Below are positions 1,865 through 28,925 of a DNA stretch of 64,000 bases, piece by piece. Numbering within the stretch: position 1 is the first letter of the stretch; each line of letters starts with the position of its first letter. Both the position numbers and the translations under genes were made by a program. The notes below the pieces were generated by a model, which saw only the letters and a program-made list of their open reading frames with translations, was not told the DNA's origin and searched no databases. Source of the stretch: an uncultured delta proteobacterium (GTDB lineage: Bacteria > Myxococcota_A > Polyangia > Haliangiales > Haliangiaceae); the NCBI GenBank assembly GCA_963848295.1, contig CAWKDB010000011.1, forward strand, positions 64,001 through 128,000, read 5' to 3'.

Positions 1865-5344
<3,480 letters not shown>

Positions 5345-5360
5345 GGGTCCCTCAGGTCCG

Positions 5361-5391
5361 AAAACAAAACAGGCGGCTCAGGTGAGCCGCC
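5361..5391 (-). terminator. Intrinsic terminator between rplT and pheS
   Basis: GGCGGCTC-ACCT-GAGCCGCC stem-loop followed by TGTTTTGTTTT on the minus strand. Confidence 0.7.
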
Positions 5392-19191: not shown

Positions 19192-19220
19192 TTGACGACT
19201 GAACATCTGCTCCGTAGGGT
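19192..19220 (+). promoter_or_regulatory. uvrA promoter with LexA-like operator in the spacer
   Basis: TTGACG-N17-TAGGGT; CTGAAC-ATCT-GCTCCG at 19199-19214. Confidence 0.55.
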
Positions 19221-19228
19221 GTCGGTCC

Positions 19229-22169
<2,941 letters not shown>

Positions 22170-23349: not shown

Positions 23350-24488
23350 CTACAGCTCGTCGCCGGCGAAGGTCAGCACGTCGTCGATGGTCGGCGCGCC
23401 GGTCGCGAGCATCACGAGCCGATCGAACCCGAGGGCGATCCCTGCCGACGGCGGCAGGCCTTCGTGAAGCGCGGCGAGCAGCTTGGCGTCGAGCGGATAG
23501 ACCGGCTTGCCGCGCGTGGCGCGATCGCGCAGCTCGGCCTCGAACCGCGCACGCTGCTCGACCGGATCGGTGAGCTCGTCGAACGCGTTCGCGAGCTCGA
23601 TGCCGCCGACGTATGCTTCGAACCGCAGCGCGGTCGAAGGCGCATCGGGCTTGCGGCGGGCGAGCGCGGCGAGCGGCGCTGGCCAGTCGACGAGGAAGAT
23701 CGCATGATCGAGCTGCGCGAGCTTCGGCTCGACGCGCGCGACGAACGCGGTGAAGAACACGTCGTCCCACGCGAGGCCGTCGGCGAGCTCGATGCCGGCG
23801 GCGCGGACCTTCGCGCCGAGCGCGGCGGCCGATTCGTCTCCGCCGACCGCGACGCCCGCCCAGTCGCGCATCGCATCGCGGACCGCGACCTTGGCCCAGG
23901 GCGACGCGATCGCGATCTCGCGCCCGCCGACGCGAGCCGTGGTGCCGCACGCGGCTTGCGCGAGCTGCTCGACATCGTCCGCGATCGCGTCGAGCGACTC
24001 GTACGCGCGATACCACTCGACCATCGTGAACTCGCTCGAGTGCTGTGCGCCGCGCTCGTTCGCTCGGAAGCATCTGCAGACCTGAAGATCCGCTCGAATC
24101 CGCCGGCGAGCAGTCGCTTCATCTGATACTCGGGCGACGTGATGAGATAACCGTCGCCGGCGCGGACGGCCTCGAGATGGAGCTCGAGCCCCGGGCTCGG
24201 CACGAGCAGCGGCGTCTCGATCTCGAGAAAGCCTCGCCGCTCGAAGAACGCGCGCAGCTCGCGCAACACCCGCGCGCGCTCGCGCAGCCGATCGAGCCGC
24301 AGCCGCGGCAAGCGCATGACCTCGCTGCCGGGCGCCGGATAATCGCCGCCCGTCCACGCGCGCGCGACGCGCTCGTCGTCGACCAGGTCGCCGGGCTTCC
24401 ACCCGGGCCGTGCGGTCAGCCGCGCATCGCGACGCTCGCCACGCACGACAGCGACATCGCCATCGATCGCGAGCACCCGCCCTTTCAT
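23350..24488 (-). CDS. epmA: EF-P lysine aminoacylase (frameshift near 24083)
   Basis: GFLEIETPLL, YLITSPEYQMKRLLA, FRANERG..HSSEFTMVEWY, RFEAYVGGIELANAFDEL, GIALGFDRLVM; directly downstream of efp. Confidence 0.92.
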
Positions 24489-25172: not shown

Positions 25173-25694
25173 GTGGACGCCTCGTCACACTACCGCCAGC
25201 TCGTCCAGCTCGGGCGGGACGAGTTTTTGGCGGCCGCGGCGCCGGCCGCGCTCGTCCGCCACCGGGTCGAGGCGGTCGACGCGGCTGCCAGCGGAGCGTC
25301 GACGATGACGCTCGACGACCAGCTCGACGACCACAGCGAAGAGACGCTCCCCCACGGCAAGGATCTGCCCGATCAGGTCGAGCTCGAGGTCTACCCGCTG
25401 AGCAAGAAACCGGGCGCGTCGTTTCCCGATCGGATCACGATCGGACGCACCAGCAACAACGACATCGTGATCATCGACAACTCGGTGTCGCGACTGCACG
25501 CCTACGTGCGGCGCGACGGCGCGGCGTGGCTCGTCGCAGACGCCGGTTCGAAGAACGGCAGCTCGGTACGCGGTGCGACGCTCGAGCCGCGCAAAGAGCA
25601 ACCGCTAGCGTCGCGGATGATCGTTCGGCTCGGCGACGTGGACCTCACGTTCTACATCGCGGCCGATCTATATGCCGCGCTCGGAGGCGTATGA
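25173..25694 (+). CDS. FHA domain protein
   Basis: ITIGRTSNNDIVI..SVSRLHA...DAGSKNGS: intact phosphothreonine-binding residues; start uncertain. Confidence 0.85.
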   Translation: MDASSHYRQLVQLGRDEFLAAAAPAALVRHRVEAVDAAASGASTMTLDDQLDDHSEETLPHGKDLPDQVELEVYPLSKKPGASFPDRITIGRTSNNDIVIIDNSVSRLHAYVRRDGAAWLVADAGSKNGSSVRGATLEPRKEQPLASRMIVRLGDVDLTFYIAADLYAALGGV

Positions 25695-26059
25695 CCGACT
25701 GGGATCAACGGCAACTGTGTCCAGACGGGAGCTGCACCGGGCTGATCGGCAGCGACGGCCAGTGCAAGGTCTGCGGCCGCGCCGCGCCGAACTGGGGCGA
25801 CGAGCGCACGCGCGGGCTCGCGACCGACGATGAGGACGACTCCGAGGACGAGGATGAGGACGAAGGCGATGACGACGAGGCCCCCGACGCGCAGGCCGCG
25901 GACGACGACGCAGACGAGGAAGATGACGACAAGCCACACGCCGCCGACGACGACGCCGCGTACGAGTGGTCGCGCCGCAAGCTGTGCCCGGACGAGGCGT
26001 GCGTCGGCGTGCTCGGCGCGAACAACAAGTGCAAGGTCTGCGGCAAAGGGCCGGGATGA
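25691..26059 (+). CDS. Small acidic protein with two CPDxxC...CKVC metal-binding repeats
   Basis: GGAGG SD; ATGA overlaps on both sides; duplicated R.LCPD..C.G.[IL]G....CKVCG motif flanking a D/E-rich linker. Confidence 0.8.
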   Translation: MTDWDQRQLCPDGSCTGLIGSDGQCKVCGRAAPNWGDERTRGLATDDEDDSEDEDEDEGDDDEAPDAQAADDDADEEDDDKPHAADDDAAYEWSRRKLCPDEACVGVLGANNKCKVCGKGPG

Positions 26060-26724
26060 CCCGCGTCACGATCGTCGGCGCGGGCGGGCTCGGGGGCCCG
26101 ATCGCGTTCGCACTCGGAGGCGCGGGGCTCGAGCTGTCGATCGTCGACCCCGACGTCGTCGAGCTGTCGAATCTGCATCGCCAGATCCAGTTCACCGCCG
26201 CCGACATCGGCCATGCGAAGGCGCCATTGCTGGCAGCGGCGGTCGTCGCGCGTGGCGGCCGAGCTCGCGGTTACCAGCTCGCGTGGAGAGCCGAGGATGC
26301 CCACGAGCTTGCCGGCGATCTGATCGTCGATGCGAGCGACAGCCCGACCACGAAGTTCGCGGTCGCGGATTGGGCGGTGGCGACCGGTCAGCCGTACGTG
26401 ATCGCGGCGGCGCTGCGCTTCGGCGGCAATGCGTTCGCCGGCGCACCGGGGTCGGCGTGCTATCGCTGCCTGTTCGAGGAGCCCGCGATCGCCGAGACGT
26501 GCGACGGCGCCGGCGTGCTCGGTCCGGTGGTCGGCGCGATCGGCGGGGTCGCGGCCGCGTTGGCGCTCGGTCTGTCGTACGGCGAGCACGGCCACGCCGG
26601 CTCGATCTTCACGTTCGATGATCTGCGGACCTCGACCGAGCCGCGCATCGTCAAGCTCGCTCCACGCGCCGGTTGCCCGGCCTGTGCGCGCGCGCCGCGA
26701 CGGGTCGAGGCGGCGCATGCGTGA
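26056..26724 (+). CDS. ThiF/MoeB-family E1-like adenylyltransferase lacking the N-terminal RYxR helix
   Basis: VGAGGLG, DPDVVELSNLHRQ, DASD, CYRC, ETCDGAGVLGP, CPAC. Confidence 0.88.
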   Translation: MTRVTIVGAGGLGGPIAFALGGAGLELSIVDPDVVELSNLHRQIQFTAADIGHAKAPLLAAAVVARGGRARGYQLAWRAEDAHELAGDLIVDASDSPTTKFAVADWAVATGQPYVIAAALRFGGNAFAGAPGSACYRCLFEEPAIAETCDGAGVLGPVVGAIGGVAAALALGLSYGEHGHAGSIFTFDDLRTSTEPRIVKLAPRAGCPACARAPRRVEAAHA

Positions 26725-27124
26725 CGAGCAGGTCACACGCTACGCTCGACACATCCAGCTCGCCGACATCGGCGAAGCCGGCCAGACCGCGCTGACGGTC
26801 GCGCGCGCACGCCTGCCCTTGCGCGAGAGCGCCCCGGCGGCGGAGCTCATCGCCGCGAGCTATCTCGCCGCTGGCGGCGTCGGCACGATCGCGGTGGCGA
26901 ACGCGACCGACGAGCAGCGTGCCGCGCTCACCGCGCTCGGGCCTGATTCGCGGATCGTCGAGCGCCTCGACGACGCAGGTTCGCCTCGGGGCGGCGGCGT
27001 CGACGTGACGCTCGCGCAACGCCCGGCCTGGTGGCCGGCGGCGATCGGCGATCAGGTCGCCCTCGCGTTCTGGCGCGGTAGCGTCGCGGCGGCGGCGTGG
27101 ATGGTCGCGACCGCGAGACGGTGA
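26717..27124 (+). CDS. Degenerate ThiF/MoeB-like protein retaining the arginine-finger helix
   Basis: EQVTRYARHIQLADIGEAGQTAL and YLAAGGVGTI; lacks GxGxxG, SNLxRQ and the zinc cysteines. Confidence 0.75.
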   Translation: MRDEQVTRYARHIQLADIGEAGQTALTVARARLPLRESAPAAELIAASYLAAGGVGTIAVANATDEQRAALTALGPDSRIVERLDDAGSPRGGGVDVTLAQRPAWWPAAIGDQVALAFWRGSVAAAAWMVATARR

Positions 27125-28371
27125 TGGCCGTCGTCATCTCCCCGCGAGCTCGCGCCGAGCTGTTCGAGCGAGCCGCGGCCGCGCGCAGCGTCGAGTGTTG
27201 CGGCTATCTCGTCGGGCCGCGCGGCGCCGAACAGATCGACACGGTCGTCGCATGTGACAACGCCGCCGCCGAGCGCGCGACCCGGTTCGCGTTCGGCGAT
27301 GCGGATCTGCTCGCGTTCGTGCGCAGCTTCGACTCCGACCGCCCTGCCCGCGCGATCTATCACTCGCATCCGAACGGGCGCGCGTACTTGTCCGAGACCG
27401 ACCGCGCGGTGGCCGCAACCCGAGCCGGCCCGGTCTACCCGGTCGACCACATCGTGATCGGCGGCGACGAGGCGAAGCACTTCGCGTGGTCGGCCGTCGC
27501 GAGCGACTTCGTCGAGATCGCCCGCTGGCGTGCTACGGTTTCGCCGATGTCCGAGAAGCTCGACGCGCTCTCCGCCGCGCTCACCGACTATGGCCGCCTC
27601 GTCGTCGCGTTCTCGGGCGGCGTCGACTCGGCGTTTCTGCTCAAGGTCGCGATCGATGCGCTCGGCGACCGCTGCCACGCGATCACGGCGGTGTCGCCGA
27701 CGATGGCGCGCTCCGAGATCGACGATGCGCGCGCACTCGCCGCCGAGCTCGGCCTCGGCGATCGCCACCACGTCGTCGAGTCACACGAGCTCGAGGTCCC
27801 GGGATTCGCCGACAACCCCGCGCACCGCTGCGCGCTGTGCAAGACCGAGCTCATGGACATCGCGGCTCCACTCGCGGCTCGACTCGACGCGCCGGTCGCG
27901 CTCGGCACGAACGTCGATGATCTCGGCGACGTCCGCCCCGGCATCGCCGCGGCCCGCGATCGCGGTGCACGGATGCCGATGGTCGACGTGCAGCTGACGA
28001 AGCTCGAGATCCGCGCGCTGTCGAAGCAGCTCGGCCTCCGTACCTGGGACAAGCCCCAGCTCGCCTGCTTGTCGTCCCGGTTCCCGTACGGCACGCAGAT
28101 CACGCCGGACCGCCTGCGCCGCGTCGATGGCTTCGAGGACGCGCTGCGCGCGCTCGGGTTTCGTCAGGTCCGGGTCCGCTTCCATGACGCGATCGCGCGA
28201 CTCGAGCTCGACCTGGCCGAGCTGGCCCGGCTCGTCGAGCCCGGCGTGCGCGAAGCGGTCGTCGCCGCCGGCAAGAAGCTCGGGTTCACCTACGTCGCGG
28301 TCGATCTCGCCGGCTTTCGTTCGGGCTCGCTCAACGAGCTGCTGCCGCTCGGAGTCCGGAAGTCGTCGTGA
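27121..28371 (+). CDS. larE: JAB/MPN metalloprotease domain in frame with a LarE-family ATP-dependent sulfur transferase (LarE part 27547-28371)
   Basis: JAB: ECCGYLVG...YHSHPNGRAYLSETD. LarE: VAFSGGVDS, RCALCK, GTNVDDLGDVRPG, WDKPQLACLSSRFPYG, QVRVR, GFRSGSLN. Confidence 0.85.
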   Translation: MMAVVISPRARAELFERAAAARSVECCGYLVGPRGAEQIDTVVACDNAAAERATRFAFGDADLLAFVRSFDSDRPARAIYHSHPNGRAYLSETDRAVAATRAGPVYPVDHIVIGGDEAKHFAWSAVASDFVEIARWRATVSPMSEKLDALSAALTDYGRLVVAFSGGVDSAFLLKVAIDALGDRCHAITAVSPTMARSEIDDARALAAELGLGDRHHVVESHELEVPGFADNPAHRCALCKTELMDIAAPLAARLDAPVALGTNVDDLGDVRPGIAAARDRGARMPMVDVQLTKLEIRALSKQLGLRTWDKPQLACLSSRFPYGTQITPDRLRRVDGFEDALRALGFRQVRVRFHDAIARLELDLAELARLVEPGVREAVVAAGKKLGFTYVAVDLAGFRSGSLNELLPLGVRKSS

Positions 28372-28925
28372 CCCGCGCGCTGCTCGTGCTCGTCGCGATC
28401 GCGGGCGTCGCGGCCGCAAGGACGACGCCGAAGAAGCAAGACGTCGCCAAGCAGACGCATCACGGCGCGGTGCCGGTCGCTGGTACGAAGCCGGCGAAGC
28501 TCGTCAACCTCTACAACCAGTGGACGCACGAGTGGCTCGCGGTAGATCCCGCCGCGCTGCCGTCGCAGGCGACCGTCGATCATTTCCTGCGCGATCACTA
28601 CACGAACAAGTGGACGCATATGGATCCGAAGCTGCTCGGATTTCTGATCGCCGCGGCCACGAGCTTTCACGCCGACGTCGTCGAGGTCGTGTCGGGGTTT
28701 CGCCACCCGAAGTACAACTTGATCCTTCGCAAGAAGGGCCACCAAGTCGCGCGCGACAGCCAACACACGCATGGCAACGCGGTCGACTTCTACATCCCGA
28801 ACATCACGACCCAGCAGCTCCACGCCTGGGCGAAAGCGCAGCACGCCGGCGGCGTCGGACTCTATCTCGAGAGCAAGTTCGTCCACATGGACACCGGCCC
28901 GGTGCGCTACTGGTCTGGCGACTAG
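28368..28925 (+). CDS. YcbK/DUF882 family peptidase M15 (peptidoglycan endopeptidase-like)
   Basis: Signal peptide; SGFR...N..LR...VARDSQHTHGNAVD, GGVGLY, FVHMDTG. Confidence 0.88.
   Translation: MTRALLVLVAIAGVAAARTTPKKQDVAKQTHHGAVPVAGTKPAKLVNLYNQWTHEWLAVDPAALPSQATVDHFLRDHYTNKWTHMDPKLLGFLIAAATSFHADVVEVVSGFRHPKYNLILRKKGHQVARDSQHTHGNAVDFYIPNITTQQLHAWAKAQHAGGVGLYLESKFVHMDTGPVRYWSGD

Follow-up and report, generated by a model that had tools for sequence, protein, structure and literature searches.

An eroded sulfur-relay operon of Myxococcota with a predicted two-gene, heterodimeric E1 enzyme

This report concerns a six-gene operon in a stretch of 64,000 nucleotides (the window) from an uncultured delta proteobacterium of the Haliangiaceae (assembly GCA_963848295.1, contig CAWKDB010000011.1, positions 64,001 to 128,000), in which the genes for two relatives of the E1 enzymes MoeB and ThiF, here termed E1dN and E1-like, precede a fusion of a JAB/JAMM metalloprotease to LarE. 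Sequence comparison with its relatives indicates that the operon is an eroded remnant of a known sulfur-relay cluster and that the absence of a sulfur carrier from it is a lineage-specific gene loss. We favor the reading, with a probability of about 0.6, that E1dN and E1-like constitute a single heterodimeric adenylating enzyme that would activate carriers encoded elsewhere in the genome (MoaD and ThiS). This reading draws on the sequence comparisons and on a structure prediction. The source genome is labeled G000; the other G, L, and P numbers denote the genomes, loci, and proteins compared with it.

Complementary losses in the two E1 genes

E1dN retains the P-loop, the SNLxRQ motif, the two CxxC motifs with the zinc cysteines, and the crossover cysteine Cys149, all in invariant columns. 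However, its match to PF00899 begins at profile position 21, and the N-terminal arginine-finger (RYxR) helix is absent from E1dN in 81/81 readable loci, two more being cut by locus or contig ends. Conversely, E1-like lacks both the P-loop and the SNLxRQ motif in 83/83 loci (one flag raised by a regular expression was a false positive), and the zinc cysteines are missing as well; what it keeps are the dimer helices and an arginine, Arg11, which aligns with Arg11 of ThiF and is retained in 87/88 E1-like proteins. The E1-like proteins, ~90 to 160 amino acids (aa) long in most loci, form a family of 364 homologs described as "hypothetical" proteins of ~130 aa. The NCBIfam matches of E1-like are weak ones to the MoeB N terminus (E = 1e-8), and its structural model, with a predicted local distance difference test (pLDDT) score of 88.7, has ThiF as its best Foldseek fold match at 3.7e-3, with none at E ≤ 0.001. 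The initial annotation of this DNA had recorded two ThiF-family genes; that description suits E1dN but not E1-like, which has no Pfam ThiF match and none of the catalytic motifs. The reciprocal degeneration read from these sequences is absent from that annotation.

In MoeB and ThiF of Escherichia coli, the arginine finger comes from the neighboring subunit (MoeB Arg14 and ThiF Arg11; PMC13139853). The complementary losses would fit a division of labor in which E1dN is the active subunit without a finger, and E1-like, a miniature pseudo-E1 of ~90 to 160 residues, contributes no more than the finger and the dimer face. A complex prediction for E1dN and E1-like scored 0.94, versus 0.00 for the best of three controls; the mark used for such scores is reached by 116/157 solved pairs and by 2/215 mismatched pairs. 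At least 99% of the contacts are common to the runs, the pLDDT of the partners is at least 91, and residues 7 to 12 of E1-like contact residues 37 to 44 of E1dN. In the predicted arrangement, which resembles the MoeB dimer, the two proteins form a single active site, into which Arg11 of E1-like would reach.

The neighborhood survey comprised 88 genomes, with both E1 genes visible in 83 (62 of the same genus and 21 others); one row of the tallies, G010, is an unpublished genome on which no conclusion rests. Since most of these loci had been found through E1-like, JAB and the ThiS/MoaD-type ubiquitin-like protein (Ubl) of the relatives were used as two other anchors. Both E1dN and E1-like are present in 20/20 loci selected through JAB. 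Among 40 Ubl-anchored loci, hand-picked from the 117 genomes of the phylum that matched, 16 have both genes (one E1-like at E = 0.054 and another recognized by eye), 2 have E1dN only, 1 has E1-like only, 7 have a full MoeB, and 14 have no E1, so that 37/40 contain either both genes or neither. The 14 loci without a nearby E1 (L287, L288, L291, L292, L294, L295, L299, L301, L311, L322, and others) combine the Ubl with JAB and mostly with cysteine synthases; they presumably use a distal MoeB.

As to the origin of the pair, at least 80 matches, those listed being all full-length MoeB, were obtained in a contig search with one alignment (A1), which was used for gene order only; a second alignment (A2), with one row (L057) in the wrong frame, was left out of the counts. 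Two Nitrospirota loci among the matches listed, L083 and L101, have the same gene order with two full MoeBs, which suggests a duplication followed by reciprocal loss. In a quick tree, from which the E1dN of G055 was left out because the pattern missed it, a branch with a Shimodaira-Hasegawa-like approximate likelihood ratio (SH-aLRT) support of 100 separates the E1dN proteins from 34 full MoeBs. We consider it probable, about as much so as the heterodimer itself, that tandem moeB paralogs degenerated reciprocally to give the Myxococcota pair, which was kept after the loss of its own carrier.

Does E1dN need its partner?

Several observations weigh against the heterodimer. The arginine finger of ThiF/MoeB has been reported to be nonessential, and E. 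coli TcdA has none (PMC13139853); therefore, E1dN could function as a homodimer. The complex score may reflect the likeness of the pair to solved MoeB/ThiF homodimers. Most of the surveyed loci were found through E1-like, related genomes are not independent, and there are exceptions to the pairing: G055 and G267 have E1dN without an adjacent E1-like, and G373 has the reverse. Gene order is what the duplication origin rests on, as E1dN and the first Nitrospirota MoeB are not neighbors in the quick tree. A full-length MoeB, which could activate MoaD or ThiS alone, is also present in G000 and in 11/12 of the other Ubl-less genomes searched. Finally, the ratio of nonsynonymous to synonymous substitution rates (dN/dS, by the simple Nei-Gojobori method on high-GC genes), although below 1 for all operon genes between the two Ubl-less genomes G000 and G363 and indicating strong constraint on E1dN (0.10) and LarE (0.04), is higher there for JAB (0.54) and E1-like (0.39) than against the Ubl-bearing G028 (0.30 and 0.25), hinting at relaxed selection.

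These points are the substance of the most serious alternative, in which the operon is eroded in the same way, but E1dN is an ordinary homodimer and E1-like serves as a nonessential accessory or an inhibitor, or is a paralog in decay that synteny has preserved. Besides the dispensability of the finger, it would account for the missing adjacent E1-like in 2/18 Ubl-anchored E1dN loci, for the shrinkage of E1-like to ~90 to 135 aa and its faster evolution, and for the synteny within the genus, which extends to the unrelated neighbors efp, orn, and ycbK. However, it leaves unexplained why E1-like should have preserved Arg11 so consistently once its catalytic motifs were gone, why the two genes should so regularly occur or be missing together, and why the dN/dS of E1-like lies below 1, and it runs counter to the predicted interface. 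On this balance we regard an E1dN homodimer as unlikely, though worth keeping in view, and prefer the heterodimeric enzyme.

Erosion of a sulfur-relay cluster

The initial annotation had suggested an undescribed sulfur relay without a carrier. Gene neighborhoods bear out the co-conservation of the operon genes among relatives, and the idea of a sulfur relay stands; it does not amount to a new kind of relay lacking a carrier. Most relatives carry the Ubl in the operon, and the full cluster matches a described class. The Ubl lies between the two E1 genes in 68/83 relatives (51/62 of the same genus and 17/21 other genomes), and 44/71 of the operon Ubls have a tail after the GG motif. It is missing from the operon in 15/83 genomes, spread over several genera, and no similar Ubl was found elsewhere in 9/14 Ubl-less genomes searched with that operon-Ubl query. 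In deeper relatives (G037, G043, and others), the gene order is rrf2-cysK-E1-thrC-Ubl-NIL-E1like-cysM-JAB-dsrE-dsrF-dsrH-tusA-sat-larE-ycbK; CysM is in the operon of 18/23 genomes outside the genus, and in 35/64 relatives JAB and LarE are separated by DsrE or TusA. By comparison, the relatives keep Ubl, CysM, DsrEFH/TusA, and Sat in order, and the G000 lineage lacks them; the carrier-less operon itself is an ordinary gene loss.

The full clusters resemble classes 4c and 4e of Iyer, Burroughs, and Aravind (2006), in which a rhodanese-less E1 occurs with SirA, JAB, a Ubl, and ATP sulfurylase (PMC1779556): they unite a ThiS/MoaD-like Ubl, JAB, a rhodanese-less E1, SirA/TusA, ATP sulfurylase, and cysteine synthase. 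The operon of G000 has JAB and the rhodanese-less E1, and no Ubl, SirA/TusA, ATP sulfurylase, or cysteine synthase was detected in it by tblastn, in keeping with the loss of Ubl, CysM, TusA, and Sat. It further differs in having its E1 divided between two complementary genes and larE attached; neither trait is mentioned in the available part of that account.

Distal carriers and a proposed role of JAB

The G000 assembly is 85% complete and indel-prone. Single-base indels break uvrA (window positions 19196 to 22169), epmA (23350 to 24488), and thiS (G000:C11:40681-40886), so absence calls in this genome need care. A genome search for carriers and lar genes, which the initial annotation had proposed as a check, found most of what a canonical use of the E1 and JAB with a distal carrier would call for, an outcome that the annotation had named as speaking against its own reading. 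A moaD gene elsewhere in the genome encodes a protein ending in GG plus two residues and overlaps moaE; thiS sits before thiG. The idea that the genome lacks ThiS was rejected, the gene being present and frameshifted in the assembly. G000 also has a full-length MoeB-rhodanese, three CysK/M homologs, larB-larC, and two larA genes. In tblastn searches, G000 yielded neither an operon-type Ubl nor NIL, DsrEFH, TusA, Sat, or Rrf2. Across the Ubl-less genomes tested, larA was found in 13/13 and larC in 5/5; one larA homolog, at G000:C11:23290, has orthologs in all 13.

The JAB domain has an intact JAMM/MPN+ motif (E...HSH-x7-S-x2-D), conforming to the published pattern of a Glu and H-S/T-H-x7-S-x2-D (PMC8832034), and a genome-wide search returned it as the only JAB in G000. 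MoaD is linearly fused to MoaE in 13/13 relatives of one survey and 4 more in another. In G000 and G363, it is split from MoaE with a two-residue tail after GG; an indel as the cause of the split was rejected, because G363 has the same arrangement. In either form, MoaD would need a cut after GG, which would give JAB a reason to stay: JAB would cut MoaD there, whether behind it lies the short tail of G000 or the MoaE of its relatives, so that an E1 can adenylate it. The parallel is DrJAMM, a JAMM protease that exposes the C-terminal Gly of MoaD (PMC8832034); the relatives carry the same MoaD-MoaE fusion, whereas in G000 and G363 the two are separate and JAB is fused to LarE.

G040, a strongly reduced myxobacterial relative of the same order (loci L058 and L155; 1.6 Mb, 98% complete, 41% GC), keeps E1dN-E1like-JAB-dsrEFH-tusA-larE together with larA, larC, and moaD-moaE. 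In this genome, E1dN is the only ThiF over the cut-off and MoaD-MoaE the only ThiS-family match, a gene content that fits the use of a distal carrier.

The JAB-LarE fusion

JAB and LarE are encoded by one open reading frame (ORF) of 415 aa (27124 to 28371), in which LarE keeps its own ATG at the junction. In the LarE domain, the motifs SGGxDS and CxxC...C mark the [4Fe-4S] type. Fusion proteins of 415 aa occur in other assemblies (P0121, 81%, and P0122, 72%), and among 64 genomes the fusion is found in 2, G000 and G363; P0122 and G363 share the fusion junction and look like one species. An assembly slip or long-read indel was rejected as the source of the fusion, since P0121, P0122, and G363 carry it too. 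A contig of run X1 covers 27497 to 27685 with no differences or gaps; as X1 may be the source sample, it is not counted as independent.

In four genomes (G360, G064, G358, and G329), the match running from JAB into LarE is interrupted by a single in-frame TAG, so that fusion needs only the loss of a stop codon. Fusions of E1-like to JAB occur in several genomes (L164 of G019, L243 of G345, and P0123 to P0126), a possible sign that JAB associates with the E1 pair. Together with the lone TAG codons, they indicate that neighbors in this operon fuse easily. Adjacency of E1-like and JAB is not obligatory, since in G020 a gene for a secreted-looking product of 515 aa separates them (L043:6485-8032).

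We take the JAB-LarE fusion to be a tolerated stop-codon loss, and LarE most likely performs ordinary nickel-pincer synthesis, as a [4Fe-4S] sulfur insertase that would work with the distal larB, larC, and larA. Its motifs and the presence of these genes in G000 liken it to the [4Fe-4S] LarE of Thermotoga maritima, from which it differs in the N-terminal JAB fusion (PMC9283937). The initial annotation had the relay feed a LarE-type thiolation. In its fullest form, the E1 pair and JAB would generate a thiocarboxylate on a carrier, and LarE would be recharged from it in the way that TtuA is by TtuB; the fusion would channel this thiocarboxylate, so that the E1 pair would feed nickel-pincer synthesis. 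The idea gains from the cluster motif of LarE, from the position of LarE after JAB/DsrEFH/TusA in Haliangiales and two other families, from the fusion in three lineages (G000, G363/P0122, and P0121), from the low dN/dS of LarE, and from the TtuA/TtuB analogy drawn in PMC9283937. On the other side, LarE is absent from 40/40 Ubl-anchored loci of other families, the fusion is confined to 2/64 genomes in the lineage that lost the Ubl and takes a mere stop loss to arise, and T. maritima LarE has been shown to take its sulfur from an IscS persulfide (PMC9283937). We therefore consider such direct feeding of LarE improbable, and more so than the E1dN homodimer.

Operon architecture and probable passenger genes

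The six ORFs and their coupling, as first annotated, were confirmed on the + strand (Table 1): all five junctions overlap (ATGA, ATGA, 8 bp, TGATG, and GTGA, in gene order), and the GC content at third codon positions is 0.85 to 0.89. Family matches and sequence motifs likewise upheld the intact FHA domain, the acidic protein with twin Cys4 repeats, JAB, and LarE. A promoter scan gave nothing above shuffles. The window was said to lack ThiS/MoaD, E2, cysteine synthase, and larA/B/C; this agrees with Pfam searches of 58 of the 86 codon-filtered ORFs and of 10 ORFs located at or beside the operon and with tblastn, which gave no carrier, CysK/M, or TusA match in the window with those queries. Two close homologs carry the source name Kofleriaceae, which we take to belong to the Haliangiales of the Myxococcota.

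Table 1. Features of the operon, with positions in the window
Feature	Length (aa)	Position	Strand	Match or character
FHA-domain protein	173	25173..25694	+	PF00498, 55 bits, E 9e-15
Acidic protein with two Cys4 repeats	122	25691..26059	+	Uncharacterized family, putative metal binder
E1dN (N-terminally truncated MoeB/ThiF)	222	26056..26724	+	PF00899, 134 bits, E 8e-39; predicted active subunit
E1-like (degenerate MoeB)	135	26717..27124	+	RYxRH helix with Arg11 and dimer helix; predicted inactive partner subunit
JAB/JAMM metalloprotease domain of fusion		27124..27546	+	PF14464 (Prok-JAB), 48 bits, E 1.4e-12
LarE domain of fusion		27547..28371	+	TIGR00268, 287 bits (cut-off 150)
YcbK/DUF882 (MepK-like) peptidase		28368..28925	+	PF05951 (Peptidase_M15_2), 111 bits; NF053624, 119 bits (below cut-off 185)

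The Cys4-repeat protein has no Pfam or NCBIfam match over the cut-off; in Atlas clusters, its relatives are "hypothetical" proteins of Myxococcota/Thermodesulfobacteriota, with recognition below the threshold. The family is present in 10/251 genomes of the phylum, has two to four repeats (L270 to L274), and also occurs apart from the operon in other families of the phylum. Elsewhere in the window, PheS and PheT domains share one open frame of 1170 aa (1868 to 5377, − strand) with a C-terminal piece of PheS in another frame (4315 to 4725); the joint frame is probably an indel artifact.

The YcbK peptidase is a syntenic passenger, and FHA is likely another. In eight loci, rrf2-cysK lies between FHA and E1, with FHA and the Cys-repeat gene upstream of it, and FHA is absent from 3/44 loci that show efp; its coupling to E1 would thus be the product of a deletion of rrf2-cysK, FHA adjoining E1 only where that pair is gone. 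The second option of the initial annotation, protein conjugation under the control of Ser/Thr phosphorylation acting through FHA, is therefore unsupported and hardly credible: the intact, translationally coupled FHA, the retained Cys149, and the occurrence of E1 and JAB in conjugation systems too are outweighed by the lack of E2 and Ubl in the window (Pfam and tblastn), by an E1 of 222 aa with no CYS-domain insertion, by the sulfur-metabolism neighbors of the full operons, and by the absence or separation of FHA in deeper relatives. Of the features of canonical or Bil-type conjugating E1 systems, the E2 partner and the Ubl were thus missing from the window and the catalytic-Cys domain from the E1; a genome-wide Prok-E2_B search, in which the controls were also silent, carries no weight on the absence of E2.

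Relationship to other E1 enzymes and significance

The operon pair shares its fold and catalytic motifs with the MoeB/ThiF homodimers, but no single operon gene has both finger and ATP site, and one active site per dimer is predicted instead of two. Its closest analogs in the proposed organization are eukaryotic: SAE1/SAE2, NAE1/UBA3, and yeast Tcd1-Tcd2 join an inactive adenylation subunit to an active one, and the arginine finger of Tcd1-Tcd2 comes from the inactive subunit, as proposed here for E1-like. As an inactive subunit of the SAE1/SAE2 kind should, E1-like keeps the arginine equivalent to ThiF Arg11. Unlike these enzymes, the pair is bacterial, stands in a sulfur-relay context, lacks a catalytic-Cys or ubiquitin-fold domain, and has a predicted inactive subunit of only ~90 to 160 aa in most loci. 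A bacterial case is BilD, the E1 of the Bil defense systems, which combines an inactive and an active domain, with Arg9 coming from the inactive one; however, BilD is a single chain that includes a CYS domain and works with an E2, whereas the operon has two genes and no E2 (PMC10557695). The known bacterial E1s, BilD apart, are stated to form homodimers (PMC10557695). No split, two-gene, or heterodimeric bacterial MoeB/E1 was found in the literature searched, a scope outside which lay supplements, subscription papers, and Burroughs et al. (2009), so that a prior mention is possible.

If the heterodimer is real, the step from homodimer to heterodimer in E1 evolution would have occurred independently in bacteria, within a plain sulfur-relay operon, and SAE1/SAE2 and NAE1/UBA3 would have a free-standing counterpart in bacteria. 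Both proteins are small, and the pair would offer a tractable model for the origin of inactive adenylation domains. More generally, a function would be assigned to the family of E1-like proteins hitherto described only as hypothetical.

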